Assembly (NCBI GenBank): GCA_000004985.1
Contig: GG738846.1
DNA length: 64,000 nt
From: Naegleria gruberi
Lineage: Eukaryota
Direction: 5' to 3' (one strand)
A model generated the notes under the pieces. The model was not told where the DNA came from. It saw only the letters and a list, made by a program, of their open reading frames with translations, and ran no database searches. The position numbers and the translations under genes are program-made. Numbering within the stretch: the first letter of the stretch is position 1; every line of letters starts with the position of its first letter. Shown piece after piece: positions 10,475-54,699 of this stretch.

Positions 10475-10486
10475 TTCCCGCCAATA
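10475..10486. promoter_or_regulatory. E2F-like element TTTCCCGCCAAT in the 200-bp bidirectional spacer between the LRR-DUSP and AK9 genes.
   Basis: A GC-rich motif in an otherwise AT-rich spacer (under 25% GC). It lies about 30 bp upstream of the AK9 ATG. Confidence 0.5.
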
Positions 10487-10515
10487 TTATTTACATTTAT
10501 TCAAGTCTAAAAAAA

Positions 10516-13500
10516 ATGTCATCAACGGATGAAACAATTGAGAAAGAACAACCAATATCCAATAACAATGAAAATACAATTCATCAAACAATCGATGTTG
10601 ATGATTGGAACTATCAACTCATAGAAAGAAAACTAGATAAAATAATTGAGGTGGTAAGTCTTGATGTTAAGTTCCGATATGTTTAACCATCCTATGAAGT
10701 TTTGGAAAATTGCAAAAACAGACACTCCCATCACTGACCCAATATCAAAGAGTGAACTATCAAATTTAGAAAAGAGAATTTCTACATTATTAAATCATAA
10801 TGAACAATATGGTCATATTCTCTCAAACATTTTCAAGAATATCAAGACAAGAGTCTCAAAACATAGCACTTGTTTTCAATTTGACCAATTTTTTGGTTAT
10901 ATGGAGAGAGTAGCATTCCATTTCACTTTGGTTTGGAGGAAGGAGGAATGGTTGAATTTCTTAATGTGTTTGTTGGCTTCCATCACAAAAAAAACATCTA
11001 ATTTCAAAAGCTTGCGAACACAAAGAACAAACAATCTAATCGGAAAGCTGTTTGATGAGAAGAAAATTTATTTTAGAGAAATAGATGACAAGGATCTCGT
11101 TAAATTTCTCAACAACAATGACATTAATGATACACTTTCGGATGACATTTATTGTTTGAATGAAATACCTAGTTTCAATGATTTGACTGGAGAGGAGATT
11201 AAATTAAGAGAACTGGATGAAATCCATCCAATATTGACTTTTACCAGGTTGATGGATCTTGGCAAACACTTTAATGTAAAGGGGGAAACTAAATATCAGA
11301 TTGGATTAAAAATTAAAAAAGTGGACAAACATTTTGAAAATTTGCTTCGCCTCTCATTACCTGAATCTGAACAGTTGCAAAATGTAGAATTACAACAAGG
11401 ATACGACAGCGAGGAAGAAATGATAATAGATGTCAATAAGAGGCCTAAGAGCTTTCTAATTATTGGAGATTCGTGTATGTTCATTCTTTCATGTTATATT
11501 TTAATTTTTAATTTAAACCCTAGTCTCTGGAAAGGGTCATATTGGAAAACAAATTTCAAATCACTACAATAGTGTAAGATTGGACCTTGAGGAGATGGCC
11601 AGAGAAGAATTCAAATCAAAGAGCTCAATGGGATTACAGGTAAGTGAGGTTAAAAATAACATTAACACAATTTTACAATTAATAGATTGAAAAGTATCTC
11701 AAGGAGGAACGAGCCATTCCAAACTCTTTACAAATTGAATTGTTTCAGAAATGGATTTCCTCTGACTATATTATGGATAGAGGCTATATTTTGGAGTGGG
11801 GCACTATTGACTCTGAGATTAGAAGCAGCATTGTACAGGCTCTCCAAGACAACCCTGCTAAATATGTAGTTAGCCTTCAAATGAATCCTGAAGAATCAAA
11901 GAATAGAAAATCGGAAATTATTTCAAAAATTACATCAAGAATTAGTGAGATAGAGTCACTTATTGATCAGGAGGATAATAAAGAAAGGCAAGAGCAAGAG
12001 GAGGAAAGAAGGAAACAAGAATTAAGGGAGGAAAAGAAGAAATTGATGCAAACTCAAAAATTGGAAAAGAAAAAAAAGGAACCATCAGAAGATGATGATG
12101 GAGAGAATGCTGACGAGGAGGAAACAGAAGAAGAACCTGAGGAAGAACCTGAGGAAGACGAGGAGGAAGAAGAACCAGAAGAAGACGAAGACGAAGAAGT
12201 AAGAGAGGAGAAGGAGAAGCAAAAAGCACAAATGAGAGAAAATCAATTTCTTGAAAGGTTAGAATAGTAAGTGTGATTGAATTCTTTCTTTAACTGTTAT
12301 TAGTTTTTACTTGAAAAAGAAAGCTTACCAAGAACAAGCAGATTTGGAACCACTTTCTAACACTATCCAGATAGCCAAAGAGCATTGTAAATTTTTAACA
12401 ATAGATACCTCATCTCAAAGTTTTAGAGATGCCTTCTTAATAGTTTTGCAGAAAATTGGAAGATCTACCCCTAATATTGTTGCAATTAATCCTGTCATTA
12501 TTGAAACCCCAGAAGAGGAACCTGATTATGAAGGGATAATAACAGCTCAAATTGAAAAAGGATATAAATGGAGTCGATGGAAGAAGTATTGTCCTGTTAG
12601 ATTTCATATTGATAGAGCGATTGTGGAAGGAAATATTCCAGCATTGTACAGAGGAAGACTGTATTTACTCTCCACAAAAGAATATCAAAATGAGTTTATC
12701 AACAATCCTAGATATTACCTAAAGAAGTTACCTGAGAAAAAGCAAAGAGTTTTATTTGTTTGGAACGGTGAAATTGGAGAAGAAATAATAAGAGAAGGTA
12801 AGTTTTAATATTTCGCACATCATTCTAACCAAGGATATTAAGTGTCTAAGTTTTACAAATCAGAAATTGTTAGCCTAGATCAATATGCAAAATATGCAGC
12901 CAGCCTCCCTCCTCCACCTATAAAAGAAAAGAAACTCGCTAAAAAGGTTACTATTGAGGGAGATGATGAAGATGAAGCCCCTGAGGAAGAACCTGAGGAG
13001 CAAGAAATTATGGAAGAAAATGTATTACCAGAAACTTCAGAAGATCTTCAAATATCCATCTTTGTTAGTGGAGGTTCTTCATCTTATGAAAATAGCTCAG
13101 TAATGAAATCTATTCTAGATTCTCCTGCCGAATCTCCACTCACCTCTATTGTCATTCTCACAAAGGAAAAATCCGAGCAAGAGGAAGGAGAAGAAGAACA
13201 TGCTACCGAGGAAAGTGCTGCAGTCGATGATGAAGAAGATAACAATGAAAATGAGGAGCAGGGCGAATCTGATCCAAAAGCAATAGATCCACCAGTTGAA
13301 AAGAAGGAAGTGATAGACTTTGTAAAGCTAGTCAAAGAAAAAGAGGAGTATTTACAAGCCAAAAAAATCAAATTTATAGAGGTTTCCTTTACTAACATAT
13401 GGGAAGGTGTATTAAGCGTGAGAAAACAAGTTGATCCTTTTCTAGTTGAGGCTGCAGCAGCTTCTATTGAACTACCAAAGGAAGACACAGATCCTTTCGA

Positions 13501-16391
13501 AAGAGAACATGTTCTATTGGAACAAGAAGAGAAAACGGAAGAGCAAGAAGGAGGGGACGACCCACAAGATGATGAAGAGCCTTCAAAGAAGGAGATTAGA
13601 CATGAAATTCTTGGTTTATCTGGAATATTTTGTCCAGTTACCCTTAAAAACAGACGGTTACTCGTAAAAGGTGATAGTTCGTTGTGTGTTTCTTACAAAG
13701 GAAAACACTATGTGTTTGACACACAGGAGGCTATGGATGAGTTCATACTTAGACCACATATTTACACGTCTGAAATTAGGAATACAACAAGCAATATTTG
13801 GATGATTGGAGTGGATGAACAATCTTCATACTCAACTAAAATTAGTGAAACATTCTCCCTTCCAATTGTTAAACTTGATTTAGATTTTCTTGAAAAAATT
13901 GGTAGTGAAATAGACACTGTAATCGAGTATATTAAAGAACTGGAAAAACCTATTGAGCATCCTAAAAAAGAAAAATCTGATGATGAAGAGGAAGAAGAAG
14001 AGGAGGCTCCAGAAGAAGAAGACGACGAAACAGCTAAAGAAGAAAAAAGGTTAAGAAGGCTCTGTAATATCCTCAAGTTAGTTCTCAAAGATCAAAAATA
14101 TGTAAATGGCTACATTCTTACCTCGATTCCATTGGGAGAAGTCACAGAACCCATACTAAACATTTTGGATGAACTAGAAGTTTTCCCAACCTTGTTAATC
14201 AACTTTAAGGTAAACGAGGAACAGTACGTAAAGAAAAATTTTGACAAGAATTTCTCCCAATACAAACAACACCTCCTACAAAAGAAAATTGATAAGAGAA
14301 AGAAAAAGGAGCAAGCAAAAATAGATGTCAGATTGAAGAAGAAAAAAGAGGATGATGATAATGAAGAAACTCAACAAGAGGAAGAGGAAGAAGAACCAGT
14401 TAAAACTAAGGATGAAATATTAGAAGATGTACAAAAATCATACTCAGATGCTTTTGAAAAGACAGAAGAAATATCTAACAGATACCTAGGAAAACGATTT
14501 GTTGTAAGAGATTTTGATTCAGCAAAACCAGAGAGAGTGGTAATGAGACAAGTATTAGATTTCATTTATCTTATGAAAGACAAAAAGCAAATATTTGATT
14601 TTATCACAACATGTGACCACGATACGGCCATCAAACTAGTTTTCGAAGGTAGAAAAAAGCTAGGATTTGGATATTTTGATAAGGTAGACAAATTGCAACA
14701 GACCTCACAATACCCTAAAATGGAAGGTAATTTCTTAACAATATGCCAAGATGAGGACCCATTCCAATACGTAGAACCACCAAAACAAGAGGAAGTTGCT
14801 CCTCAACAACCTGAAGAAAAGTCAAACAATGAAGAAAACCAAGACGAGGAACAAACTGATGAAGAAAAACAAGATGATGACGAACAGAATGAAGAAGAAA
14901 AGAACGAAGAAGAGGGAGATGAGCAAGAGGAAAAGGATGGTGATGAAGAGAATGAAGATGTTTCGGTAAAAAAGACTGTCAAGCCCCCAAAACCTGAAAT
15001 AAGCTTCCCAGTAGTTGTGAATAATCTTGTATTTTTCTTCAAAACAGAAAAGAATAGAGAAATCTTCCTTAAAGAGAGAACTAGACTGATAGAAACTGAA
15101 ATTGATCAAAAAGAATTCCGACCAAAAATCTTACTGTATGGAGGAGATCCGGAAAAAAGAGAAATACTTGCTAGAAAAGTTGCTGCTAAACTTGGTTGCA
15201 CTTATGTGAGTTGTCTTGAAATAGTACAAACTTTCATGAAGTATCAGACAGCAATAGGCAACCAATTTAGAAGTGAAGAAAATCCATTCCCTGAAGGTGA
15301 TGATCTTCTTTCCTATTTGAAACGTAGACTCAACCACTTTGACTGTGTGGTAAATGGTTTTATTATAGATGGTATTTTCCCAACCTATGAAGATATTAAG
15401 GAGTTTGCCAAAAAAGGTGACATTATTGATAAGGTTTTCTTTTTGGATAACCGAGAGTAAGTTTTTACAATTTCCATTCACAATAACCTGTTCTCATAGT
15501 AGCACAACTGTATCAAACGATGAGAGACAAATTGAAACATTATTCGAAATGGAAAGACCTTTCACAACCATAAGATTGGGAATACTTCCTGATTGGAGCT
15601 TAGTCTCTAGCATTGAAAGAGCTGTCACCAATACTCTACACAGACAATACAACTTTTTTGTCAACTCTTCCAAGAAGGAAATACCTGCCCCAATATTTGA
15701 TATTGGTATGGATTCTGATTTTTTCAGTGACCACATTTCAAGATTTAAAACATACTGTCCAGTCAAGTTTGTGGATGAGGGAATTCTTTTTGATACCATT
15801 ACAGACAGAACCCACACGAACAGATGTTTCTATGAGGATAAGATTTATTGTTTTAGTGATTCAAATGTCATGCAGATGTTTGTTTCAAACTATCACAAAT
15901 ACACAGACAAGAACATCAAGTTCCCAGAAGAATTACCACACGAGGTTAATGATATGCACTTGAGACATGTTTCTGAACTTCAAGAAGAGGAATACGATGA
16001 TAAGATTGCAGGTCAATATGGTTATTTGGGATTCTGTCCAATATTATTATCCTTGGGAATGGTTGTGTGGGGGAAATCCAGATTTTCTATCAAATATAAG
16101 GGTAAACTCTATAGGACGTACTCTAGTGAGGGACGAATCAAGTTTATGCAAAAACCATGGGAGTTTGTTTCCTTACAACTTCCAACCAAGTTGCCAGTCA
16201 GACAAAGAGATTGGCCAAATCTAGGAGTAGTGGAATACCTTGAAGAAAGTGTTGAAAAACTTGTTTCTTCTTCAGTTCTTGAATTGGCCAAAGTAAGACC
16301 ACTGTATAAAGGGTTGACAGTTAAGGAATCTGCAATCAAACATTTGGCCATTCTGTTGAAAAAGAATAACAAAAAATTAGAGAGCAAATAA
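10516..16391 (+). CDS. AK9: Adenylate kinase 9 (AK9)-like multi-adenylate-kinase-domain protein, 1869 aa, 7 exons: 10516..10653, 10700..11474, 11524..11639, 11686..12266, 12304..12797, 12843..15456, 15500..16391.
   Basis: Five same-strand track ORFs are joined by six short introns (46, 49, 46, 37, 45 and 43 nt; GTAAGT or GTATGT donors) with consistent phases. The total is exactly 5610 nt (1870 codons). There are at least two AK-like cores: a P-loop GDSFSGKGHIGKQ plus GYILEWGT, and a second with GFIIDGIFP. Human AK9 is about 1.9 kb of protein. There are four YHS/TRASH-like CPV...YKGK.Y.F....F..NP..Y modules and long poly-acidic inserts. Confidence 0.7.
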
Positions 16392-21064: not shown

Positions 21065-21183
21065 ATGATATTCAAGACTACAATTTTTTAAATAGTTAAT
21101 AAATTTATTGTGATTTTACAATATTAGTTATTAGTATTTTATTATTTATTATATTTATTATTTAAATTTTAATGCACACAAAG

Positions 21184-21195
21184 ATTGGCGCCAAG
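21184..21195. promoter_or_regulatory. E2F-like palindromic element ATTGGCGCCAAG immediately upstream of the preferred CenH3 ATG.
   Basis: GGCGCC core. It sits between the two candidate ATGs, 10-20 bp before the A-run ATG at 21205. Confidence 0.5.
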
Positions 21196-21204
21196 ATTAA
21201 AAAA

Positions 21205-21938
21205 ATGCCGCCAAGAAGAAGAGCATCATCAGACGAAGATGATAACATCAGGCTAAGTGGTTTTCCTCAGACTATGACTAGTTCGCAGAGAATGCAACAG
21301 ACTAGAATAACACCAACAGGTCAATTGACAACAGCATCTTCATCAAGAACAGGAGCTGCTTCCAGTAGTTCTACCACAAGGAGACCAACAACTGCTAGCA
21401 GAACAACACGATCATCCGAGAGTGATGATGAAAGATCTAGTGGTGATGATACACCACCACCAAGAACGACACCATCCCGACAAAAAGCCACAACAACAAC
21501 ACCAGCAAGAAATTCTGCAGGTGTGCAAAAACAGAAAAAGACAACAACATCAAAATCCACAGCTAGAAGACCACCTAGTGGACCAAAGAGAAGACCTGGA
21601 GAAAAGGCTTTGGCAGAAATTAGAAGATATCAAAAAACTACACATACACTTATTCCCAAATTAACATTTGCTCGTTTGGTGAAGGAAATTTCGGAAATGG
21701 TTGCTGTGAATAGTCGTCTGAGGTGGCAAGCCCATGCTATTGATGCTGTGCAAACAGCTGCTGAGGATTATTTGATACACTTGTTTGAAGATTCGTATGT
21801 ATTTCAATATCATTATTCTTAATTGACCTTTTCAGAAATTTATGTGCCTCTCACGCAAAACGAGTTACCATTATGGTAAAAGATATTCAACTTACGAGAA
21901 GAATTAGAGGTGTAGCCAGAGAAGCTGTCTACCATTAG
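21205..21938 (+). CDS. CENH3: Centromeric histone H3 variant (CenH3/CENP-A-like). Exons 21205 (or 21172)..21794 and 21836..21938, intron 21795..21835 (41 nt, GTATGT...TTTTCAG).
   Basis: The histone fold [69 protein letters not shown] joins across the intron to [25 protein letters not shown]. Loop 1 is 2 residues longer than in canonical H3. The ~150-aa S/T/R-rich divergent N-tail is typical of CenH3. The second ATG (MPPRRR) has the A-run context. Confidence 0.8.
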
Positions 21939-24459: not shown

Positions 24460-27400
24460 TTAATCATCTTCTTCAATGTCGGCATACTTGGATTTTGGAT
24501 GTTTTGATGGAGACCAACCAGAATCGTCAATCCAATCCTCCAAATCAGCAAAGGCATCACTGTAATTTGCATCATCCTCAACACACAAGGCGTAATCAAT
24601 GAATTTGTTCTTACTTCTCAGTGAACTGGTTTGAGATTTCTTTCTCTTTTTTGATTGGCTGGATGAGGACATATTTTTTCTCTTCTTCTTATTATCTGTT
24701 GATGATTCAGTGTTGAGTTTAAAATCAGCCAGTTCATCCAGCACTTCAAGAGTAGGGAATTCTTTTGTTTTTTTCATCTTTTTCTTATATATTTTGGACA
24801 AGTCTCTAATATCAAAACACATTTTCTCTATCAATTGTTCCAATTTTGTAAAGTTTTTGGTAAGGTTAAGTTCTGTATTGTTTTTGGCATTAATAGAACT
24901 TCTAATTGATGAAACCTTAGAAAGTGTATCATAAATACAACTATAATTTTCAGAGACAATCTCTAACCTTTCAATATTTTCCTTTTCGAGAGATTTTCTA
25001 ATCCTCTTTTTAAATGTTGATGAGCTATTCACTACATAGGTACATAAACCCATCATAATCTTCTCCAACTTGGATATTATTAAATCTCTATTCAAATGAA
25101 TATTATCAGATTCTGCAAATATTAAATCAACTGAATTGATAACACAATCTCTAATCTTGGAGAATAGAGCTAGTGGGCAATTTTCATCATTCAAAAGATT
25201 AGAGGAGAGGGAAAATGAAGATCCAAAACCTTTTGAAATGGTACTAGTTGTGAAACGTGTTTGCTTTTTGAATTGTTGATTGATTTTTGCAACAATGAGT
25301 TCAATGTAGGAAAGGGAAACCACAATTGTCTTGGTTGGAGAATCTTTAGACTTCATCAAGTTTGATATGTTTAACCGCGTAGGCAAATTAGTAGAGCTAT
25401 TTGGCAAGGCAGCCACCATACACGACTGAATAGAATCTGCACAATAGTCTAAAGATTTGGCAACTGTTGAAACATTCAACAGAAACATGAGTGTCTGATT
25501 AATGATAGGTGTTGTTACACTTGAAGATAAATCTTCATTGACAAGCATTTCCATCAATACACAAACAGTATCCAATCTTGCACTGCATAAAGATGAATCA
25601 GTCATTTCTTCATCTGAGTCACTATCTTCCTCCTCATCATCATTATCTTCCTCATCATCATTCATTACTCTCTTGCCATTAGAAATACCAATTGAAATTG
25701 TCAATGGATGAACACTTGATAATGTCTTGATCAACTTTAAAAAGGCACTACAAGATCTACTAGTCTTATAGGTATCTAAAAATAGTAGTTTTGTAAAGTA
25801 AAATGTTAAGGTTATAAAATCAAGTGGATTGATTGTGAAATCGTTCACAATTTGTCTTCTCCTGTTGGCTCCAGAAATATCAATTTCAAGTGGATGATCT
25901 CCATGTTCTAACATTGAAATGTTTGATGTTATAGTCTCTTGGATCTGTTTTACATTAAAGACATACTTGATAAACTTTTCCAATGATTTCATCTTACCAA
26001 ACGAATCACTAGTGCTCAGCTTGACACCCTCAAAATAAACTTGCATCAGATTGAGGATTTTAATTCTCAGTCTTTCGAGAATAGAAGTTTCTAATGAAAT
26101 ATTTTTGAGGTATATCGAATCTCTACCAATGCAGTCCTCAATTGACTGTAAGAAGGATGATTTGACAAGTCTAATTTTTGACCTCCTTGCCTGTTCTTGG
26201 TTGTATAAAGTTATAAAGAGCGTGAAAAGCGAACGAATAGTCCTAATAAGAGTAAGACTCTTTTGAGAGACTTTTCCCAATACTTGAACTTCCTCAATAC
26301 TTTTAACAGTTATCATTTTTAGGAAATTATCATTAAGTTTTTCTTTTAAAGATTCAGCATGAAAAGTTGTGTGGTCTATGAGATTAATAAGAGACATGAG
26401 CCATGACTTGTTCCATTCTACATGTTCTCCACGTATCTTGTCTGCCAAATCCACAGATAATAGAGTGCATGTATCGAATGTGAAAAGTGTATCCTTTTTC
26501 TTTTTGGATTCCTTTTCGATTTTTTGGATGAGTGAGGATATTTCTAAAAGTTCTAAAATTTCCCTTGTCATTTCTTGTTTCTCTTGGAAAATTTCCTCTA
26601 TCAATACCTGTATTAAAGGCAATATAATTGAGATTCTGTTGAATACTGACAGGTTACTATCAGAATTGTCCATATTTAATAGGCTACACAATTTAGGAGC
26701 ATCCCTAAAACTTTGCATTAGACTTTCATAAATTTTCTGAAATAATCCAATAGGACCTGATATTGCCTTTCTAGAGAGTTTGTCTAGAGTAGAAAAGCAT
26801 TTGAAAAGCTCATGTACACACTCAAGTTGTCTGTAGGAAGGCACTTTTGCATCTTCGTTCAATACTTCAAAGCAATTCATAAAATTAATCTCATATCCAG
26901 AAGATGTTAGCTGAAAAACATGTACAACTTTCGATTTCAATATTTGATATAGAATATTACTGGCCTCATCAGTGAGACAACATTTGCATTCTCCATTTAA
27001 CATTTTCTGCATTTGAAAAATAGTTGTTAGCAAATTGAAAATATCACACTAATACCTACCAAAAGGGAACTAGTCAAACACTTATACAAGTGAGATTTAA
27101 GCTCTAAATCATTGAATTTGAATGCATACTGCAGAGATACCAGAATACTCATCTGATCATCTTGGTAACTGGGTATAGATAAGAGCATCGATAACCCAAA
27201 TATTGCCAATTTCCTTCGCTCCATTATATTTTCTCTCTTTACTTCTGAGCACATCTTTTCCAACTTGGAAAGTAACTCTCCTCGTACATAATCTGATATT
27301 TCAGTCACTGGAAGCAGAGCTAAAAGTATTCTGCTACTTATTTGATATGAATATTGATCAAATGTTGACAAGTAATCGTAAAATCTTTCAATAATTGTGC

Positions 27401-29351: not shown

Positions 29352-30698
29352 TTATCGACTTTCTTTTGGATTTAAATACTTATCTCCTTGGATTTCTAAC
29401 ATTTCCTGTCTCACTCTCCATCTATGATTCTTTTGTTGGGATTGCTGATTTTTAAGGAATGGATCATTTTTCCACATGGCATTCATTTCTCTCCACCTAT
29501 TGACTGGATCATTCACCTTCTTTCGGTAGGTTACTGGCTTTTTAACATTTGATTTGAAAGGAAGTGGTTTTGCTGACTGACAGGAAATACTCGAAGACGT
29601 TGATGATCTTACCATACTAGAATTTTTACCTGTTTGTGAAGAGTCTTTTGGTGATTCTGATTTACTGGGTGTCTTGATAACAGGTTCCTTAATAGGTGTT
29701 TTTACAAGTGGAGCTGATTTAGGTCTACTAACAGGAAGAGAAGGTGGTGTATAATTACTTTCCTCAAGTGGTTTGAATTTCACTTTTGATGTTGGTGTTT
29801 GGAGATCATGGTGTGTGACATCTCTTGAAGTTATTGGTCTATGGTAATCATCATGATCTTGACTCTTTCTATTCGGTGAAGAGAATGGATAGCTAACTGT
29901 TTCAACCTTTTTCGGTGTTGAGAGATGATTCCTAGTTGGTGAAGTAAACATGTTGTTTGTTGATGTTCTTGCTGGTGAATTATATACATTTGGGGAAGGG
30001 ATATTATTAATTGTTTGAGGAGGTGCTTGAGGTTTGGTACTGAAACTAGAATTAAAACTTGTATCTCTCGCCATGTCAACCTCTTTCATAGAGGACGAGT
30101 AGTGTTTTCCATAGTATGTTGCTGTGTCATAACCTTCATCATCACTATGATTATAGTCTTCCTCATTGATATGATTGAAACTTTCATTAACTGCTGTTCT
30201 CTTAATTATTTGAACCCTTCCATCCTCATCTTCATCATCCACAGTGTTGTTATTGTTTAAGATTGGAGTATATTCTGGGAGATAGGTATTAAGTTCATCT
30301 TCTTCATAGTCATGTTCGCTTTCTGTCACTGGCACGCTTTCCTCTTCCTCCTCTTCCTGATCTTCTTCGGCTTGTTCGTCATCTTCGTCTTCATCATCTT
30401 CAGGAAGAACAGATGAAGAGAGTTGAGTTGTATTTTCAGGGTCTTCATCTTCAACCTCAATATTTTCAGTTTTAAGTTCTGCAATGAATTCCTGAACAAC
30501 GTCTTCAGGAACATCCTCATATCCAAGCCTCTCTAATTGTGCAATTAAATCACATCTCTTCATCTTTATACTTGTTGTTGATACTCTATCGTTTTGTTCT
30601 TCATGATGACTTATGTCATATTCACCTTCATCATCCTCCTCGGTTAAGGAATAGCGACTGATATGAGAGGAATTGCCACCATAGGATGATACACTCAT
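29352..30698 (-). CDS. HYLS1-box-containing Ser/Pro-rich protein (centriole/ciliogenesis HYLS1-like), 448 aa.
   Basis: C-terminal DPVNRWREMNAMWKNDPFL...HRWRVRQEMLEIQG resembles the conserved HYLS1 box (DPV..Y......W........RW.IREQML). The rest is low complexity, acidic and Ser/Pro-rich. Confidence 0.45.
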   Translation of the reverse strand: MSVSSYGGNSSHISRYSLTEEDDEGEYDISHHEEQNDRVSTTSIKMKRCDLIAQLERLGYEDVPEDVVQEFIAELKTENIEVEDEDPENTTQLSSSVLPEDDEDEDDEQAEEDQEEEEEESVPVTESEHDYEEDELNTYLPEYTPILNNNNTVDDEDEDGRVQIIKRTAVNESFNHINEEDYNHSDDEGYDTATYYGKHYSSSMKEVDMARDTSFNSSFSTKPQAPPQTINNIPSPNVYNSPARTSTNNMFTSPTRNHLSTPKKVETVSYPFSSPNRKSQDHDDYHRPITSRDVTHHDLQTPTSKVKFKPLEESNYTPPSLPVSRPKSAPLVKTPIKEPVIKTPSKSESPKDSSQTGKNSSMVRSSTSSSISCQSAKPLPFKSNVKKPVTYRKKVNDPVNRWREMNAMWKNDPFLKNQQSQQKNHRWRVRQEMLEIQGDKYLNPKESR

Positions 30699-30734
30699 TT
30701 TTTTTGTTTTTGAAAAATTGCAGATTGTATCTCA

Positions 30735-30757
30735 AAGGCGCCAAATTTTGGCGCCAT
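30735..30757. promoter_or_regulatory. Tandem pair of E2F-like elements (AAGGCGCCAAA, TTTGGCGCCAT), 30-55 bp upstream of the HYLS1-like ATG. A degenerate third copy ATTGGCGCTAAA is at 30817..30828.
   Basis: Two GGCGCC cores 14 bp apart in an AT-rich spacer. Confidence 0.5.
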
Positions 30758-30901
30758 CCCCTTTATTTTTGTAAGGGAGCTAATATTGGTTTCAAGGTAA
30801 TTGCTCAATGTCATATATTGGCGCTAAATCATCTAATTGTATCTAACCTTCTCGTTGACATCACTAACTTTTGTTATTGATAGAAAACCATTTCACTATA
30901 A

Positions 30902-38633: not shown

Positions 38634-41600
38634 TTAATCCTCTTCATCAGATGGAATAAATTCGTCACCATCATCTTCGCCATCCTCTGGTTCACTGGCT
38701 TCACTATCAGAAAGTTCAATTATTTCCTCCTCCTCTTCTTCTTCATCCTCAGATTCCACCTTCTTATTGGCTCTGGTTGTCCTAACAGGTCTACCTCTGG
38801 CTTTAGGCTCTTCTTTATCTTCTTCAGCATCAGAAACAACAACTTCTTCAGCTTTCTTCTTCAATTCAAAAAAGTCTGTAATACTGGTTTTCCTCTTTTT
38901 GGTTGGTGGTTTTGTTTCCCTGGTCTTTATAGGGGCAGTGATAAGTTCCTCATCCTCTTGTTTTTCGTCACTCTGACTGCTACTGGCAGCTGGTTGGGCA
39001 GGAGTTGTTGCAGCAGAAGTTTTCCTCTTGACTCTCTCTGCAAATGAAAGTTCTTCCTCAGGTTCTTCATCTTTTTTTTCCTCCGCAAGTTCTTCATTCT
39101 TTGTGAAGGATAATTTGGTTTGCTTGGCAGCACTTCTATTCGATTTCACTGCTTTTGGTTTTGCTTCTTCTTCTTCTTCTTCATCATCGTCTTCATCGTC
39201 TTCATCGTCTTCCTCAACTTGTTTTTTGGTAGCTGGTTTTCTGCCACGTTTTGGTTTTTCATCGTCTTTGTCATCTTTCTTTTTAGCTGCAGGCTTTCTT
39301 CCTCGTTTTGGCTTCTCTTCCTTTTCTTCATCTTCCTCTTCGTCAGATTCTTCCTTTACTACCTTTTTGGCAGCTGGTTTTCTGCCACGTTTTGGCTTTT
39401 CTTCCTTTTCTTCTGCATCGTCTTCATCCTCTTCTTTCTTTACAGCTGGTTTTCTACCACGTTTTGGCTTTTCATCATCGTCAGCTTGTTCTTCTTTCTT
39501 TACAGATGTAGCCCTCTTTCTGGTGGTCTTGACCTTGGCTGTTGACTCATTTACGACAATGTCAGGTCTTAGTTTGGAAGTGGCACGATAACCCTTAGGT
39601 CTTGGAATTTTACCATGTTTTCCTCTTTCCTTTTCAATTTTCTTAAGGTAAAAGTCAAACTCCTTTTGTTCCTTTTGCTCATATGAATCTAACTTTTCCA
39701 AAAATTCGTCCAACTCAGAAAGCCACATTGTTTCAGGTTTAGTATTTTCCAACTGTTCAACTTCCTTTACCTTTTCCTCTTTTTCTTTTTCTAATTTCTT
39801 TACTTTCTCAACAGTTAATGACCACAAAGGCATGGACAAAAGATAATTGTATCCGTCAGTAAGATCTGCAACATCCTTTTCTTCATCCTCTTCTTCCTCT
39901 TCTTCCTCGTTTTGGATATCTCCTGCTGCTGCAATCTTCTTTTCCTTTGGGAATGAAGAATACTTCTTTGTTTTGAGTTCTTTTAACAGGTCTGCCTTCT
40001 TTCTCTTTTTCACTTGGATGGTTTCGTTAATAACTTCCATTATAAATCTGACCTTGTTGGAAAGGATTTCTAATTCCTTCTTCATCTTTTCTAGCATGTA
40101 TTCTTTTCTTTTGCCATAGAATTTCAATCTAATTGGATAAAACTCCTTCAAAATGTCCAAAACAGTTTCATATTCTTTGATACCACCCTCTTCAGAAAAT
40201 AAAACCATATTACTAGTAGAGAATTTCTTAAACAATTTAAAGTAGTCATATAGCCCAGCGTCTTCAGCATCTTTCATTTGCTTATCAGTCATTTTAACTG
40301 TGAAAGAGACAGTTACATCAGTGTGATTTTCTCTGAAATCGTCTACTTGTTGAGCTTCCATCATTTTTTCCAGACGTTCTTTGAATGATTCTGTCCATAT
40401 CCTAATTGGTAACTCACTGATATCAAGTGTATTATCATCGATTTTCTCAATGACACCCTTGGTTTGCCATTTGGTTGGAGCTAATCTTTCAATAATACCA
40501 TCAAAGCCTTTATACCATGGATGGAACTCCTTAGCTTCTTCTCCCTTAATCAGTGCCTTGAGTCCTTCGACAATATCAACTGGATTATAGGTTTCAATGT
40601 TTGTAGACCAGGCAGTACCAATACCTTCGGATCCATTTACTAACACCATTGGGAGAATTGGAACGTAAAATCTTGGTTCTATTGATTGACCGTCATCATC
40701 CAAATATTCAAGTACTGGATCATCAGCCTTAGGGAAAATGTATCTGGTAATTTCTGATAATTTTGTAAAGATATATCTGGGACTGGCAGAATCCTTTCCT
40801 CCTTGAAGACGAGTACCAAACATACCACCTGGATAAAGCAAGTTGATATTGTTGCTACCAACAAAATTTTGAGCCATATTTACAACTGTACCATTCAAGC
40901 TGTCTTCACCATGATGGTAGGCTGATTGTTCTGAAACGTAACCGGCAAGCTGAGCAACCTTGATTTCCTTTTTGAGGTTTCTCTTGAAACAACTGAATAA
41001 GATTTTTCTTTGACCAGGTTTTAAACCATCAACAATACTAGGAATAGATCTCTTACAGTCAGCCTTAGAGAAGAGAATCAATTCCTTATCAATAAAGTCT
41101 GTATATGAAATTTCCTTCTTGGAGTGATCAATGTAGGTACCTTCTTGATGATTATTTAGCCATTCCTTTCTTTCATCTGTGGCAGCCTTGGAAAATACAG
41201 AGGTGATCTTTTTATCACAATCAGTATCATACTTGAATCTCTTTTGGTGGAGAGACATATTTGAAAAGTATTCCTTTGCTTCTGGTGCTGTTGAAGTACC
41301 CAAACCCTTGTAGTATTTAATAGTCCAACCTTTTGTATCTGAAAGTCCTTCTTTCCATGTTTCATATTCAGGAATACTGAAAAAGGTTACAGCTTTCTTG
41401 GTACGATTGTTAGTTGCTTTTACGATTGGTGTTATGAATTCTTTCAAAAATCCAGGTATTTTGAGTAAGCTTGGCCAGAATTTGTGAATAAAATTAATGA
41501 GTAAACCTTTGATGTGTGAACCGTCGTGATCTTGATCAGCCATGATCATAATACTACCATATCTGAGGGATTTGATATCCTCCTTTGTGTATGTCTTATC

Positions 41601-43190
41601 AAATTTCAACCCTAAAATTTTAGCAAGAGTACTAATTTCTTCATTCTTTACAACCTTATCCAGTTTACAATCTCTTACATTGAGAGGTTTTCCCTTTAGT
41701 GGGAATACTCCGTAGTAATCTCTACCAACTACACTCAAACCACCAACAGCAAGAGCTTTAGCAGAGTCTCCTTCTGTTAAAATCAAGGTACACTTTTCAG
41801 AATTTTTACTACCAGCATCGTTAGCATCATCCAATTTAGAAATACCAGTCAATCTTGATTTTTTAGTTCCTGATTTCTTATTGAGGGCTTTTTCTGACTT
41901 GAAATCAGCATACTTCAATACTGCTTCTGAAGCCATTTTAGTGACCTTCTTTAAGAATGCTTCATCTAATTTACATTTAGAACCAAAATCTTTCATAGAT
42001 GTGGTAAGAGTTTCCTTAGATTGAGAATCAAAAGATGGGTTAATAATTAGAGAACTGACAAATACCCATAATTGATTCTTAATGTAGGCAGGTTTGATAG
42101 TGTTATTTTTTTTAACCAGTGCCTTTTTGATATTATCTGAAACTTGATTTACGATATGATCAACATGTTTACCGCCTTTGGTTGTGCAAATACTATTGAC
42201 AAAACTGACTTGTTGCATGGAACCTTCACTCAATGTTATACCAACTTTCCATCTCTTACCATCTTCAAAGTAATGAATTTCCTTATCTATTGTGTAAAGT
42301 TTGACATAATCTTTAAATGTTTTCATTCCTGTAATCTTTTTTCCATTCAAATAAATACCAATACCAGTTTTAAGAGTACCTGCCAAATCATAAACTCTCT
42401 TTTTTAATAGGGAAACAATATCATCATCTAGTTTATCCATTCCAAATTTAGAAAGATCAGGATAAAAAGTAATTTCTGTATAACTTTCAGCTTTTGAACA
42501 TGTTGTAATTTTAGGTTCTTCCTCTTTTTCCATATTTTGAGTCCAAGTTTGTCTAAACTTTTTCTTTTCCTCAGAGTCTACTGTTTCAACAATAAACTTT
42601 TCGGAAAATATGTTTGTAAGTTTTGCACCATAACCATTTCTACCACCTGTAACTCTTTTTTGTGTATCATCAAAATTACTACTAGTTAACAAGTGACCAA
42701 AAATCATTGTTGGCACATAAATTTTGTGTTCGGCATGGATCTTGACAGGAATGCCTGCACCATTATTGTAGACTGATATTTCGTTTTGTTCGGGATTGAT
42801 TGTAACTTTAATCTTGTTGCAAGTTTCATCTCTAACAGAGTGATCGGCAGCATTGACTAGAATTTCATCAAAGATTTTATACAAGGCTGGAACAAATTTG
42901 ATAGTTTTCATCTTCATTCTTTTGTCTTCATCATCCCAAATCCACATATCCTCACCTTCTTGCATATTGACTGACCCAACATAGGTATCAGGTCTCAAAA
43001 GGATTTGTTCACGAAGACTTTTCTTTTGATAAATTTCTTCGACAGTCTTGTTCTTGTTGTTGTTAGATTCATCATGATCAATGAATTCAACCTCATCGTC
43101 TGATTCTTCGGCAGCAGAAGCTTCATCATCCGATTCTTCTTTTCTCTTTCTTTTTGGTGCAGCAGCTGGTGCTTTCTTCTTTGGTGGCAT
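38634..43190 (-). CDS. TOP2: DNA topoisomerase II, 1518 aa, intronless.
   Basis: GHKL ATPase (EILVNAADH, GRNGYGAKL), TOPRIM (LILTEGDSAKALA, MIMADQDHDGSHIKGLLINF) and the WHD/catalytic Tyr region. Start at MPPKKK (ATG 43190) rather than the track's upstream extension. The basic/acidic C-terminal tail has four PKRGRKPAxKK repeats. Confidence 0.92.
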   Translation of the reverse strand: MPPKKKAPAAAPKRKRKEESDDEASAAEESDDEVEFIDHDESNNNKNKTVEEIYQKKSLREQILLRPDTYVGSVNMQEGEDMWIWDDEDKRMKMKTIKFVPALYKIFDEILVNAADHSVRDETCNKIKVTINPEQNEISVYNNGAGIPVKIHAEHKIYVPTMIFGHLLTSSNFDDTQKRVTGGRNGYGAKLTNIFSEKFIVETVDSEEKKKFRQTWTQNMEKEEEPKITTCSKAESYTEITFYPDLSKFGMDKLDDDIVSLLKKRVYDLAGTLKTGIGIYLNGKKITGMKTFKDYVKLYTIDKEIHYFEDGKRWKVGITLSEGSMQQVSFVNSICTTKGGKHVDHIVNQVSDNIKKALVKKNNTIKPAYIKNQLWVFVSSLIINPSFDSQSKETLTTSMKDFGSKCKLDEAFLKKVTKMASEAVLKYADFKSEKALNKKSGTKKSRLTGISKLDDANDAGSKNSEKCTLILTEGDSAKALAVGGLSVVGRDYYGVFPLKGKPLNVRDCKLDKVVKNEEISTLAKILGLKFDKTYTKEDIKSLRYGSIMIMADQDHDGSHIKGLLINFIHKFWPSLLKIPGFLKEFITPIVKATNNRTKKAVTFFSIPEYETWKEGLSDTKGWTIKYYKGLGTSTAPEAKEYFSNMSLHQKRFKYDTDCDKKITSVFSKAATDERKEWLNNHQEGTYIDHSKKEISYTDFIDKELILFSKADCKRSIPSIVDGLKPGQRKILFSCFKRNLKKEIKVAQLAGYVSEQSAYHHGEDSLNGTVVNMAQNFVGSNNINLLYPGGMFGTRLQGGKDSASPRYIFTKLSEITRYIFPKADDPVLEYLDDDGQSIEPRFYVPILPMVLVNGSEGIGTAWSTNIETYNPVDIVEGLKALIKGEEAKEFHPWYKGFDGIIERLAPTKWQTKGVIEKIDDNTLDISELPIRIWTESFKERLEKMMEAQQVDDFRENHTDVTVSFTVKMTDKQMKDAEDAGLYDYFKLFKKFSTSNMVLFSEEGGIKEYETVLDILKEFYPIRLKFYGKRKEYMLEKMKKELEILSNKVRFIMEVINETIQVKKRKKADLLKELKTKKYSSFPKEKKIAAAGDIQNEEEEEEEDEEKDVADLTDGYNYLLSMPLWSLTVEKVKKLEKEKEEKVKEVEQLENTKPETMWLSELDEFLEKLDSYEQKEQKEFDFYLKKIEKERGKHGKIPRPKGYRATSKLRPDIVVNESTAKVKTTRKRATSVKKEEQADDDEKPKRGRKPAVKKEEDEDDAEEKEEKPKRGRKPAAKKVVKEESDEEEDEEKEEKPKRGRKPAAKKKDDKDDEKPKRGRKPATKKQVEEDDEDDEDDDEEEEEEAKPKAVKSNRSAAKQTKLSFTKNEELAEEKKDEEPEEELSFAERVKRKTSAATTPAQPAASSSQSDEKQEDEELITAPIKTRETKPPTKKRKTSITDFFELKKKAEEVVVSDAEEDKEEPKARGRPVRTTRANKKVESEDEEEEEEEIIELSDSEASEPEDGEDDGDEFIPSDEED
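39220..39500. repeat. Four imperfect ~72-84-bp tandem repeats inside the TOP2 C-terminal coding region.
   Basis: Each encodes EEKPKRGRKPAAKK (AT-hook-like GRKP core) flanked by acidic runs. They show as the repeated AAGFLPRFGF peptide in the antisense track ORF 39028..39591. Confidence 0.6.
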
Positions 43191-43234: not shown

Positions 43235-43246
43235 TTTGGCGCCAAA
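43235..43246. promoter_or_regulatory. Perfect palindrome TTTGGCGCCAAA (canonical overlapping E2F sites), about 45 bp upstream of the TOP2 ATG.
   Basis: Exact 12-bp palindrome. TOP2 is a classical E2F target in animals and plants. Confidence 0.55.
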
Positions 43247-43315: not shown

Positions 43316-46300
43316 TTATTGAATTGATCTGTACATGTAATTATTTGTACTATTCAGAGAATAGGTACTACCATCGTGTGACTCGTGCAATGTGTTTCCA
43401 GGATTTAAACGACCTGTAATTGGGGCGGGCATTGACTTTACCTCATGCACCAATTTTTCTCGTTCTTCTGTAGGGTTAACTCTCAATTTTCTAAAAGGGC
43501 TTCCAAGTGGTTGCCACTGATGAATAATGTTAACATTCACCAGAGTTCCATGCACAGGAACGTGTGTTTGTTTGGAAAAACTTTCAAGAAGTCTTGAATA
43601 GGATTTCTTTGGATGTTTTTCTTTGGTTGTTCTCGATTTATCCAGAACAACTTCTCTCTGATTTACTTTCACATTCTTTCCAATTGTTGAATTATATTGT
43701 TGCTCGGCAATAAATTTTGCTGCATTAATTACGCCCCATTTCTTTAGGGATTCTTTTGATATCTGTACATATTGTCCAGTTTTTTCGTCGAGAATAATAA
43801 TAGTTTTCTTTGGATCTTTAGAATTTTCCTTATAGGGAACAGAAGGAATATCTTCGACAACATTTTGACTAGCATCATCCAAAAAAGTTTCCCAATTCAA
43901 ATTCTTTGATTCGTTTGACATTCCAATAGCTTCCTGGATGGCATCTCTAAGAATGGATGTAATTTCAGCAATTGACGATGGAACAGGGCTTGAATTCATA
44001 GGGTCCATAGACCTGTAAGCGTCATGTCTAACTGTTTCATACGGTAAGTATTTTCTATTAGGAAGAGAGGCTGAGGATACTATTGGCTTAATGCTAGGTT
44101 CTATTCTGCTGTTGTAGCTTCTTACTGAAGACATTGTTTCAGAGACATTGGCAGGAGATGTGAGTTTGGCTTTGATGAGCGTTTTCATCTTATTAGCAGT
44201 AAGATCTGGTTTCACTTTTGGAATATCTACTTCAACCTTCTTTTGAGGAGATTTCTTGTTTTTAACAATTGCCTTTATGGCTTCATGACCATCAAGCTCT
44301 TCCACATTTGATTTATCATTTCTCTTTTTTGATTTTTCAATCCTGTTCTTTGAAAGATATTTCAAGTCCTCATATCTCTTTTTCAATGGAGATTTGTGTC
44401 TTCTATTACCGTCAAATATTCTTTTTGCAGCATTAAAGTTAGCTCTCAAATCTCTAATTCTCTTGTCCTTTGACTTGATAAGCTTTTCCATATATTCAAG
44501 TTGATTCTCGTACTTGTTACGTTCTCTCTCAAAAATATCTTCACCATCGTGGGATGCTCTCAATAATTCTTCATTCTCTCCAAAAACTTCTTCGGCGTCA
44601 TCGAAACTATATTCATCTTCTTGAAAGGACTGGTAAACCTTATTGAAAGAGCCCATTAGATCCACATGCTCATTTTTCAGTTCCTCATACCTCTTGAAAA
44701 CATTTTTAATCTCTTCCTCATCAGCTTCATCAAGGGGAGAATTTTCAAGACTAAGCTTTAAGAACTCGATAATCTGATCCTTTTCTTTCAAAGTATTCTC
44801 CAAAGCATCCATTTTAAGTTTAAATTCAATCTGTGCTTTGATCTTTTCCTTGCTCCGTTTAATTTGACTTCTCTTCTGACTAATGTCTTTAAGTTGTGAC
44901 TGGAACATGGTGCTAGAACTATCTCTATCCTTTTCTTGTATTTGCTTAATTCCCGTTGTAGGGTCCACTACCATAGTTGGTTCTGGGAATACTCTATTCC
45001 TCAATTGATATGGTAAAATGGTTCTTATTACCTCTGGATCATCCATGCCCTTTAGAACAACAGGACCCATATACTTGCACCAAACCTTTTCAGAAAATGT
45101 ATCAAGTTTGTCTTTGATGGCATCCCACACAGAGTTTGAAATGACTATTTGACCACCTGCAGCCTGACCTTCAACTCTGGCTGACCTATTCACCACTGGT
45201 CCGAAATAGTCATATCTTCCTGTAACTGGATCCTTTTCAACAATTGGTTTACCTACATGGATACCCATTCTCACTCGCAGTCCTCTAAATATCATAGCAT
45301 TTGCATCTTCTGTGTCGTATTCAATTCTACCAGGTTTCAGACTCATCAATTCATTTGGCCAATCACCATACACCAAAGAAATTTGAGTCTTGATCGCAAA
45401 CTCAACAGCATCTTCAACACGATGAAAAGCACACATAAACTTTGTTAAATCATTGCTAGTGGTTGAAGAACATTTTTAAAAAAACTTACTGCATCACCTT
45501 CTGTTTTTACTTCGAACCCATCAGTTTCTGCTAAAATACTTCTTATTATTGAATTGTGAAGTTTTAGTGACTTTTCCATTGTTAAAGGATCAAGTTCCCA
45601 TAATCTTGTAGAATCTTGAACGTCTGTAAAAACAAGAGCCACCTCTCCTCTTGGACCTTCTTTAGGAACATTTTCGTCTTTCTTGTCTTCCTTATAAAAC
45701 TGCAGTCTTCTTTTCAAAATATCCATTTGTGTTTTGTAATCCGATAATTGGTTAGCCAAATCATTTGCTTCAAGAGAGACCTCTTTCAATTGTTTTTGGT
45801 CTTTTTCTTTCTTTTGTTCTTGGCTACTAAGAATGAGGGGTATTATTTGAGATTTTCTCATAATTGCTTCCTCATTTCTAGGTTTTGGAGGTGGTAATTT
45901 GATTTCTTGAATGGGTATTGGTACAAACTGTTGTTGAGATGGTTTTTTCTCAACAGGTGGTGGGAGTAATTCAATTTTTGAATTAGTTTTTGACAATGGT
46001 TGTGGAGTTTGTCTTCTACTCGTAGGCTTTTGAGGTATTTCTTCCATAACAACCAATTCCTTATCAGTTGTAATTTCCTCTTCGCTGTCACTCAAAACAA
46101 GGATCTCTGGAGTTGGTTTAACAGGAGATGCTCGTTCTACTACCAATTCTGGTTTTTTGTCTTCATGTTTTTCTTCTTTTGAGGGTTCTTCTGGAATGAG
46201 AAGCACCAGATCATCATCCTTTTTTTCCTCAATGGCAGGTTTGGGTTCAAAATCCTCCTCCAGCTCGTCCAACATAGTGGGCGATGACCCGTCCACTATT

Positions 46301-47417: not shown

Positions 47418-47430
47418 AATGGCGCCAACC
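47418..47430. promoter_or_regulatory. E2F-like element AATGGCGCCAACC upstream of the cyclase gene.
   Basis: GGCGCC core in the spacer between the cyclase 5' end and the 3' end of the thioredoxin-like gene. Confidence 0.4.
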
Positions 47431-52493: not shown

Positions 52494-54627
52494 TTATTCT
52501 AATAATCTCAAACACATTTTCTTTAGTAATCTTGCTTCTTGTGTTACTGTTCGGTCATCTACAGACTTGCCATCAATATCAAGAATGGAAGTATTTACAT
52601 TGGTTGCATCACTGGCACCATCTGCATCTGGACTCAGGGCTGTCTTGATTTCCTTACCATATGTTGCAGCAGCATCTAAAAAGTTCAATATATCAATATA
52701 CGTCTGATCCTTAATGACAATCATGTGTTTGGCAATCGTTTCAAATAATGAGAGGAAGCATCTCTTTGCATAGAACCATGTATCTGTCATAATCTTCTTA
52801 TTGTATGGGATTAAACTCTTCATTACTCTTGAAATACCAAACTCATAGTGACCCTTGGAACAGTAAAGTGTACCAATTACAAGATTAACAATACACAAAT
52901 GAAGAGATTGTTTTTGAGGATTTTGTCTGTGCAATCTTTGCTCTTCATTTTCAATGTTTTTCATCCATTCTTCTGCTTCTTCGTTCATACTCTTCATAAT
53001 ATACGAAACACACAAATTGGCCAAAACCATTGCGTGAACATCTAACAAATTATCCTTTTGTTTGGTTACAATTGGGAGATAGAATTTGATAGCTTCCTTA
53101 AATTTGTTCTCTTGCATAAAGTAAGTGTTGGCCATATTGAGTTTCCAAACGTCGTGGTCAGAACAAAATTCTGCACTTTGGAGGAGAATCTTTTCAACCT
53201 TTGGGTAATTTTCAATATCCCAATAAATCTTTGACATTGCCATTAAAACGGGTACGTATCCCTCCAATGCCTCGTCATAGTCACGAAGAGACTTTTTCAT
53301 TTGATCGCCATCCTTCTTAATTCTGGCGTCTTGTATAATTTTAGTGAGTTTTCTAAGGTTGTCGATATGTTTTGTTGCAAGAATATCCAAGCTTCTGAAA
53401 GCCTCTTCTGGACTCGTTTGAGCCATAATAAGTGCCTCCAAAAAGTCATACAAATCTTGACTCAAATAGCTAAACGACAAGTGACTATTTTCTGCTAAAA
53501 TATCAGCTGCCAAAAGGTAATGTTGATGTTTACAATATAAAAGCAACAAATTTCCAAAAGTTTCAGGAGGGAATGGTGGGTGTTGAATAAGATGTTTGAG
53601 TTTTTTAAACCCTGAATTAGGATCAGATTCCATTTGCAACAATCCTTGGTTGTGTAATGTTACTGGATCCAATTCTTCTTCTGATCTTGGTGGCATCTCT
53701 CTGAGGGCCTCATTACCTTCAACGTAATTCTTCAATTGATATTCAATGGAGAATTTCAAGTTGAAAGATTCAATGAGAGCTGTATTTCTCAATGTTTGAC
53801 TGTTTCCAACACTTCTCACCTCAAATCCGTCCGTGTTACTACCAACACTTAACTCTGGATGTTCCTTTGATCCTCTATCAATAATATCCTGATTATATTT
53901 ACCGGCAATATTATATTGTTTCAATCTATAGTAACACAATGCAATGTTATAAGCAATGTGTGGTTGATATTCCAAAATACTAAGCGCATCTTGGAACTTT
54001 TTCCTTGCCTCTTCATATTTTTCTTCCTTATATAAAATACAACCTTGGAGAACCAAAGTATCTGGGTCATCTTGAATACACTTTTCGGCATGTGATTTTG
54101 TTGTTGCCAAATCTTCCAATTCGTAATGACAAGCCGAGAGTAATTTTTGAACCTTTTAAATTATCTCAATTTTACAAGCTCAAAACAAATCCACTTACTT
54201 TTTGCATTAATTCTTCCGATTCAATCGGAGCACAGGCCTTGATTGCTTCAGGATACATTCCTGCCTTAAAAAGAGATTGAGCCTGATAAAATTTGTATTG
54301 ATCGACAGAAGGATATAGCTTGACTAATTTTTCATAGGTTTGTGCAGATTCAACAAAATTCTGAAGCAAATAGTCGCAATAAGCAAGTAATGAAAGAGCA
54401 GCTCTGCTCTCTGTAAAGAATTCTAATTGATTTTGAAGAATTTGTTTAGCATCCTCATACTTTTTTTCCGTAATAAGGGTGTAGATCACTTTTGTATATT
54501 CACCTTCCTGAACCCGAACACTTGGTCTGCCTCCATTAACAGATGTTCCAGGTCTATTATTCCCCCAAAAACCGGTTGGAAGAGCAGTCATAAGTCTTCC
54601 ACCGGCAGCTGTTGATATTCTATTCAT
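52494..54627 (-). CDS. IFT70: Intraflagellar transport protein 70 (IFT70/TTC30/DYF-1), about 695 aa. Exons 54627..54199 and 54152..52494, intron 54198..54153 (46 nt).
   Basis: Collinear with human TTC30A along the whole length: SRAALSLLAYCDYLLQNFVESAQTYEKLVKLYPSVDQYKFYQAQSLFKAGMYPEA; MPPRSEEELDPVTLHNQGLLQM; FPPETFGNLLLLYCKHQ; HLCIVNLVIGTLYCSKGHYEFGISRVMKSLIPYNKK. The GTAAGT...TTTAAAAG intron joins the two track ORFs in phase 0. Confidence 0.88.
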
Positions 54628-54686
54628 TTTTTACGATATTGTTTTTTCGTTGTTATTTTCCGCCATGTAGAATTTTGTAGTTGTTA

Positions 54687-54699
54687 TTGGCGCCAACCA
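54687..54699. promoter_or_regulatory. E2F-like element ATTGGCGCCAACC, 60 bp upstream of the IFT70 ATG. A second, weaker TTTTCCGCCATG is at 54657..54668.
   Basis: GGCGCC core, same CCAACC flank as the 47418 site. Confidence 0.45.

Follow-up and report, generated by a model that had tools for sequence, protein, structure and literature searches.

What binds the GC-rich palindrome that recurs before start codons in an AT-rich stretch of the Naegleria gruberi genome? The question is raised by 64,000 nucleotides of contig GG738846.1 (assembly GCA_000004985.1), hereafter the window, in which the hexamer GGCGCC lies upstream of the genes for topoisomerase II (TOP2), a CenH3-like histone, an HYLS1-like protein and IFT70. 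A first, sequence-only reading had described it as E2F-like. The motif proved to be real and strongly enriched; it is biased in position, specific to certain genes and conserved with a degeneracy of the E2F type, and the cognate proteins exist in this organism, a heterolobosean amoeboflagellate. The elements are quite probably promoter-proximal sites for the E2F/DP-family factors of N. gruberi, namely E2F-DP and/or the two-domain protein DEL.

Motif copies in the window

The window has a GC content of about 33%, uses the standard genetic code and contains long open reading frames (ORFs). The gene models used here comprise 30 genes, which leave 4,300 bases (6.7%) as intergenic DNA. Exactly six copies of GGCGCC are present, at 21187, 30737, 30750, 43238, 47421 and 54689, as had been counted before. 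Together with the site at 10474, they form six promoter clusters (10474, 21187, 30737-30824, 43238, 47421 and 54689), all intergenic and each upstream of a gene. The individual sites are as follows (where no strand is given, none is assigned).

10474..10485, plus strand: TTTCCCGCCAAT, E2F-type site of the CCCGCC class, 30 bp before ATG 10516 of a large multi-exon gene on the plus strand
21185..21194: TTGGCGCCAA, perfect 10-bp palindrome, 12 bp before the CenH3-like ATG 21205
30734..30757: tandem site AAAGGCGCCAAATTTTGGCGCCAT, 38-51 bp upstream of the HYLS1-like ATG 30698 (gaps of 38 and 51 bp)
30816..30827: ATTGGCGCTAAA (listed also as TTGGCGCT at 30818), TTGGCGC half-site, the third and distal HYLS1-like site, about 120 bp upstream of the ATG
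43235..43246: TTTGGCGCCAAA, perfect double E2F site, 47 bp upstream of the TOP2 ATG 43190
47419..47428: ATGGCGCCAA, about 173 bp upstream of the cyclase ATG 47247 and about 60 bp past a thioredoxin-like stop codon
54687..54696: TTGGCGCCAA, perfect palindrome, 61 bp upstream of the IFT70 ATG 54627
7831..7839, minus strand: weak candidate CCGCCAAAA (TTTTGGCGG on the plus strand), 49 bp upstream of the p25-alpha/NHL-repeat ATG 7782

The earlier claim that the copies occur only in non-coding DNA holds for all six GGCGCC hexamers and for TTTCCCGCCAAT, but not for the wider class: GGGCGGG at 43424, which is CCCGCC on the other strand, belongs to the cyclase coding sequence, and TTTCCCGC at 7257 is also coding. 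CCCGCC is for the same reason not unique in the window, as had been stated, since GGGCGGG is its second copy. The distance of 15-70 bp first given for the sites has likewise to be amended. Six copies lie 12-61 bp from an ATG, but the cyclase site lies farther away, because the first in-frame ATG of this gene is at 47247; the assignment of this site to a target is the least certain of all. The site at 10474 stands between two divergently oriented genes; the other one, a leucine-rich repeat (LRR) gene on the minus strand, has its ATG (10315) about 160 bp away. The weak candidate CCGCCAAAA agrees with TTTSSCGC at 7 of 8 positions.

When the copies are aligned, their common part is TT(T)SSCGC, present in every copy on at least one strand and often doubled into the palindrome TTGGCGCCAA. 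The shared core, TTGGCGC(C), is on sequence grounds the E2F consensus TTTSSCGC; in full it makes up an overlapping double site, TTTGGCGCCAAA, and TTTCCCGCCAA represents a second class. Three perfect 10-bp palindromes are found, at 21185, 43236 and 54687. The TOP2 copy (43235-43246) is, as first noticed, the exact double site TTTGGCGCCAAA. The optimal sites reported in vitro are TTTGGCGCCAAA for E2F1-3 and TTTCCCGCCAAA for E2F7/8.

Several features of the surrounding sequence were noted. Towards its 3' end, the cyclase coding sequence contains a GC-box-like word, GGGGCGGGC (43420-43428); no other SSCGCS word of the window falls inside a gene body, while GCCGCC at 21207 overlaps the start codon of the CenH3-like gene. 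This gene has a further in-frame ATG at 21172, ahead of the one at 21205; if translation began there, the TTGGCGCCAA site would be coding and read Ile-Gly-Ala-Lys, but the A-rich context favours 21205 as the probable start. Such an A-run stands directly before the ATG of nearly every gene (AAAAAAATG; for example at 10507-10515, 21198-21204, 30699-30706 and 54628-54633) and looks like a Kozak-like leader typical of these amoebae.

Enrichment and position

In order to establish how far these counts exceed expectation, the window was compared with dinucleotide-preserving shuffles of itself. GGCGCC, observed 6 times, had a mean of 0.39 and a maximum of 2 in the shuffles; TTGGCGC gave 10 strand-hits against 0.84 expected, and TTGGCGCCAA with at most one mismatch gave 6 against 0.6. 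All these hits lie in intergenic DNA, and none of the counts was reached by any shuffle. By our own arithmetic, with the clusters taken as independent, all six would land in 6.7% of the window by chance with a probability of 0.067^6, or about 9e-8. Among hexamers made of G and C only, of which the whole window contains 18, GGCGCC is the commonest, and 7 of the 17 occurrences of GCGC in the 64 kb fall within these sites. The lack of GGCGCC in coding DNA is by itself at chance level (about 0.4 expected); the significant fact is the intergenic excess.

The analysis was extended to a wider sample of 239 kb, made up of the window and eight heterolobosean loci from N. fowleri, N. lovaniensis, Willaertia magna, Acrasis kona and one metagenome contig. 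In this partly ascertained sample TTSSCGCS starts at 26 intergenic and 2 genic positions, whereas column-permuted controls average 1.6 intergenic and 6.3 genic. In an unbiased test of 7-mers in 125 upstream regions against the rest, AAAAAAA and CAAAAAA were by far the most enriched words, because of the A-rich leader before start codons; after the A-runs, the top words were GCGCCAA (18 upstream, 8 elsewhere, p=7e-15), CGCCAAA, GGCGCCA and CCCGCCA. When the window and the purposely fetched promoters were excluded, the motif density was 0.35/kb within 200 bp upstream and 0.07/kb elsewhere, a five-fold difference (p=0.008). The extra copies in this non-ascertained set precede kinesin, INO80 and unannotated genes.

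In the window and the related loci, the distance to the ATG is 12-90 bp for most sites. Within the DNA compared, the motif is not equally frequent outside promoters, nor is it indifferent to the start codon, and it is enriched in promoter-proximal, upstream rather than coding sequence, as is expected of E2F sites.

Conservation at orthologous promoters

The TOP2 site is kept in all four species for which this promoter was compared, the relatives' sites being 40-85 bp before the ATG. N. lovaniensis carries TGTTGGCGCCAATC at -84, N. fowleri AAACGCGCCATTC at -55, and Willaertia TTTCCCGCCAAAT at -81 together with TTTCGCGCC at -42. The core is GGCGCC in N. gruberi and N. lovaniensis, CGCGCC in N. 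fowleri, and both CCCGCC and CGCGCC in Willaertia. The variation thus stays exactly within S-S-C-G-C-S, at the degenerate S positions, while the flanks diverge. Such degeneracy would be expected of sites for an E2F-type factor rather than for a strict palindrome binder.

In the N. lovaniensis TOP2 upstream region (9064-10000 of its locus), the promoter block with TGTTGGCGCCAATC occurs twice, at 9300 and 9917. A run of N separates the second copy of the block from the TOP2 ATG, and a "gene" of 153 amino acids is called across the first. This repeat is probably an assembly duplication accompanied by a spurious gene call.

At the HYLS1-like gene, the tandem site GCGCCAA-N3/4-TTT(G/A)GCGCC is found in N. 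gruberi, N. fowleri and N. lovaniensis; in the latter two orthologues its distance to the ATG is 31-45 bp. In the alignment of the three upstream regions it is the main invariant island besides the A-rich leader.

Of the four heteroloboseans compared at IFT70, three have a promoter site: N. gruberi, Acrasis kona (TTTTTTGGCGCCTAAA at -25) and the metagenomic heterolobosean (GTTGGCGCTATTTT at about -46). A rough estimate, with the general rate for promoters of about 0.07 sites per 200 bp, puts the probability of three in four by chance at about 1e-3. As the IFT70 promoters cannot be aligned across species, the evidence here is the recurrence of a site and not an aligned footprint. A metagenome scan for further IFT70 relatives yielded mostly transcript-like contigs of 1-2 kb without promoters.

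Cognate factors

The N. gruberi set given by Medina et al. 2016 (PMC4862756, supplementary file 4) consists of single E2F, DP, RB and DEL proteins, the last being of the E2F7/8 type with two DNA-binding domains. Analysis of these sequences with Pfam showed intact E2F_TDP domains, with E values of 1e-28, 2e-18 and 1e-30; the CC-MB (E2F) and DP domains were also present. The RRxYD motif, which contacts DNA, occurs as RRIYD/RRVYD. The genome thus encodes E2F and DP winged-helix proteins with the contact residues that E2F sites require, and homologues of E2F and DP, whose absence would have told against the E2F-like reading, are at hand.

Taken together, the match to the consensus, the presence of E2F, DP, DEL and RB, the intergenic enrichment, the positional bias and the conserved degenerate sites give good support to that first reading. 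We infer that E2F, DP or DEL is the binder and that its binding would control transcription. Lying about 10-90 bp upstream of the start codon in a minority of genes, the sites would make the transcription of these genes follow the RB-E2F state of the cell.

CpG within a GC context is a great rarity in the window, where the 64 kb contain GCGC 17 times and CGCG 4 times. N. gruberi has a Tet-like dioxygenase, so that binding could depend on whether the CpG inside the sites is methylated.

Target genes

The genes that carry sites in their promoters were identified by Pfam and homology searches. Those that the argument needs are the following.

38634..43190, minus strand: TOP2 gene with a motif-bearing promoter
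21205..21822, plus strand: CenH3-like divergent histone H3 gene, with a tail of about 100 amino acids and a histone fold
29352..30698, minus strand: HYLS1-like gene with a C-terminal DPVxR[WY]...W...RWxVRQEML box
52494..54627, minus strand: IFT70/TTC30 gene, two exons

The names given at first to TOP2, to the H3 variant, to the coiled-coil/cyclase gene and to IFT70/TTC30 were confirmed. The TOP2 ORF has 95% identity over its full length to the N. gruberi topoisomerase II at NCBI, and the next-best matches are those of N. fowleri, N. lovaniensis and Willaertia magna. For the CenH3-like protein, the best matches among solved structures are H3/CENP-A chimeras. The HYLS1-like protein matches Pfam HYLS1_C at E=0.006, below the curated cut-off, and its identity as HYLS1 is weakly supported. 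The label AK9 for the large gene at 10516-16391 was not confirmed: Pfam gave weak FAP206 and YHS-type matches and no P-loop was found.

In the related loci, other SSCGCS-type sites precede genes for separase (N. lovaniensis, at -42), a histone (N. fowleri), Rad1 (Acrasis) and Ctf8; the kinesin and INO80 genes mentioned above are those of N. fowleri and Willaertia, respectively. Sites therefore stand before cell-cycle, DNA-replication or chromosome genes, as E2F sites do (TOP2 in four species, CenH3-like, separase, histone, Rad1, INO80 and kinesin). The predicted targets include classic E2F targets, namely TOP2, the centromeric histone, separase, histone, Rad1 and kinesin. Chromosome-cycle genes are mixed with centriole/cilium genes, and this mixture is real for the few genes examined.

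Some observations on these genes and their neighbours were made in passing. The TOP2 ORF is uninterrupted over 1518 amino acids, whereas the NCBI N. gruberi model has 1457, and the identity is only 95%; the public model probably splices out a segment, or else the window is from a different strain or haplotype. The HYLS1-like ORF is 99%, not 100%, identical to a 448-residue ENA protein, which hints at strain or allele differences. Between the start of GLE1 and the 3' end of TOP2 (36972-38633, about 1.66 kb) there is no ORF above about 130 amino acids, no tRNA and no Rfam match, which is unusual in a window that is 93% genic; the segment could represent the remains of a gene, an intron-rich gene or a non-coding locus. 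The 64-kb window as a whole likewise gave neither tRNA genes nor Rfam matches.

Other candidate factors and explanations

A different, possibly lineage-specific, dimeric factor could bind the palindrome TTGGCGCCAA, its likeness to an E2F site being then a coincidence. Three perfect 10-bp palindromes would suit such a factor, and WTTGGCGCCAW copies are found in Willaertia and Acrasis too. However, the TOP2 site of N. fowleri (CGCGCCATT) and the two of Willaertia (TTTCCCGCCAAAT and TTTCGCGCCTG) have no palindromic form, and neither has TTTCCCGCCAAT at 10474 in the window. What all copies have in common is the asymmetric half TT(T)SSCGC, and the targets fit an E2F regulon; we consider the dimeric factor improbable. 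The motif had also been offered as an element of the core promoter close to the transcription start site (TSS), and its tight position, mostly 10-90 bp from the ATG, is what one would expect of a general core-promoter element of Naegleria. Yet the window has it at no more than 6-7 of its promoters, which number about 30, and 5 sites were counted in roughly 95 non-ascertained promoters elsewhere, so that about 5-20% of promoters have it. A core element would be common among promoters and keep a constant offset from the start, whereas this one lies anywhere between 12 and about 173 bp from the ATG and is doubled or tripled in some promoters. This low share makes it a gene-specific element rather than a core-promoter element, and the latter explanation is very unlikely.

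Two further known sites share letters with the motif. As GCGCCAAT contains CCAAT, the copies could be NF-Y-type CCAAT boxes, and CCAAT does appear on one strand at 10474, 21185, 30818 and 54687 and in the N. lovaniensis TOP2 promoter. An NF-Y box would be invariant in CCAAT; here CCAAT is present in a minority of copies and is not conserved at the orthologous TOP2 sites. The corresponding letters are CCAAA in N. gruberi TOP2, CCATT in N. fowleri and CCTAA in Acrasis IFT70, and 30737, 30750 and 47421 lack it altogether. The invariant part is the SSCGC core, which makes an NF-Y box scarcely credible. An RFX-type X-box controlling cilium genes would account for a palindrome upstream of IFT70 and a centriole gene, and GTTGGCGCCAAC is loosely like GTTGCC..GGCAAC. 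In our own comparison with the X-box GTNRCC(N0-3)RGYAAC, each half mismatches GTNRCC or RGYAAC; moreover, RFX and FOXJ1 are reported absent from Naegleria (PMC12183034), and the motif is equally present at TOP2, CenH3 and separase, so that an X-box has next to no probability. Just as little can be given to chance, to a compositional artefact or to an RNA hairpin in the 5' untranslated region (UTR), even though the motif is short, the region AT-rich and the palindrome in principle able to fold. The shuffles that never reach the counts, the permuted controls with the opposite genic/intergenic bias and the conservation across species effectively refute an artefact, and the non-palindromic variants at orthologous promoters speak against the need for a hairpin.

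Points against E2F/DP sites and the centriole/cilium genes

Against the assignment of the sites to E2F/DP-family factors, the following has to be weighed. The identity of the factor is suggested by the resemblance of the motif and the presence of the proteins. Three perfect palindromes and a frequent overlap with CCAAT leave room for another factor. The 239-kb sample is small, and its loci were fetched in part as orthologues of motif-bearing genes. The FANCI-like gene (24460-29300) has no E2F-like site of its own, and FANCI is a typical E2F target elsewhere. In the N. fowleri IFT70 promoter the site is missing, the aligned sequence being a decayed version, GGTTGGTCGTCC.

The FANCI-like gene itself, multi-exon and on the minus strand, gave weak matches to the FANCI_S1/S2 solenoids, below the Pfam cut-offs. 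It starts about 50 bp downstream of the HYLS1-like stop codon, and the sites nearest to it are those of the HYLS1-like triple site, 1.4 kb away. In the IFT70 upstream region of N. fowleri (9850-10000 of its locus), GGTTGGTCGTCC and TTTTTTCCCTCC stand against GGTTGGCGCCAA and TTTTCCGCC in N. gruberi (within 54628-54772), and they look like decayed copies of both N. gruberi elements.

The proposal that the regulon also takes in some centriole/cilium genes (HYLS1-like, IFT70, possibly others) is more tentative. A code shared by the cell cycle and ciliogenesis, as the sequence-only reading had put it, is plausible, with the HYLS1-like tandem in three species and the IFT70 site in three of four in its favour; the link is suggestive, its basis being two or three genes. 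A difficulty arises from the biology of these cells. Naegleria amoebae divide without centrioles, and the basal-body and flagellar proteins are made only on differentiation (PMC4819266). Mitotic and flagellar microtubule genes belong mostly to separate expression programmes (PMC10802493). S-phase genes and cilium genes that act only on differentiation would therefore be expected at different times, and one shared site alone cannot explain both. The two patterns would have to be separated by an activating E2F-DP as against a repressive RB-bound E2F or DEL, or by additional elements.

A bolder version would make RB-E2F/DP/DEL, through TTGGCGCC-type sites, the direct switch for the genes of de novo basal bodies and flagella when a heterolobosean amoeba leaves the cell cycle. 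We regard this as unlikely, though worth stating for what it would entail: the link between E2F and centrioles seen in vertebrate multiciliated cells and in Stentor would be ancestral to eukaryotes, and the missing regulator of cilia genes would be supplied in lineages without RFX, FOXJ1 and XAP5.

Comparison with known systems

Naegleria is a classic model for the de novo assembly of centrioles and flagella. A 2025 review notes that it lacks RFX, FOXJ1 and XAP5, so that no factor is known to drive its cilia genes (PMC12183034). The element described here is a conserved, well-delimited cis-acting one for which a candidate factor readily suggests itself, and it stands before a centriole gene, an IFT gene and S-phase genes. 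Read conservatively, the result is still, as far as we could find, the first promoter motif to be defined in a heterolobosean, together with a predicted E2F regulon, and it adds a deeply branching lineage to the evidence that the specificity of E2F sites has been stable since the last eukaryotic common ancestor. The novelty at first supposed was too broad, as E2F sites are a known kind of element and TTT[GC][GC]CGC has already been used in Stentor (PMC9371601); for Naegleria and other Heterolobosea, our literature search brought up neither a promoter motif nor an E2F regulon.

The nearest likeness is to the RB-E2F regulon of animals, plants, Dictyostelium and Chlamydomonas, which has the same consensus TTTSSCGC, including the double site TTTGGCGCCAAA and the TTTCCCGCC class. 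The position is promoter-proximal in both, the targets are of the same kind (TOP2, centromeric histone, separase, histone and checkpoint genes), and E2F, DP, DEL and RB are all present. What sets the predicted Naegleria sites apart is their closeness to the ATG, a matter of tens of bp, in a genome that is very compact. To our knowledge, S-phase genes have E2F sites upstream in every lineage with E2F, which makes the cell-cycle part of the finding ordinary.

For the centriole part, two animal systems may be compared. The programme of Multicilin/GEMC1-E2F4/5-DP1 drives centriole amplification in vertebrate multiciliated cells (PMC4083089), and E2F-DP1 controls centriole duplication in C. elegans (PMC4777132). 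As in Naegleria, E2F-type sites lie upstream of centriole/cilium genes, and basal bodies are made outside the normal duplication cycle. In contrast, the basal bodies of Naegleria arise de novo from an amoeba without centrioles, and the predicted targets comprise the HYLS1-like gene, IFT70 and weaker candidates. The geminin-family co-factors are, as far as we know, specific to animals.

Finally, regenerating Stentor coeruleus offers a protist counterpart. There, predicted E2F targets, marked by TTT[GC][GC]CGC in non-coding DNA, are expressed together with centriole genes (Sood et al. 2022, PMC9371601). E2F, DP and Rb rise early in this process, and RNA interference (RNAi) against E2F impairs the late stages of regeneration (PMC9371601). 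In both systems this consensus, in the non-coding DNA of a protist, may be associated with centriole genes. Stentor is a ciliate, of another supergroup, in which the motif was imposed as a regular expression and cross-species conservation of the sites was not shown, whereas in Naegleria the motif emerges de novo and is conserved; Stentor, for its part, has the expression data.

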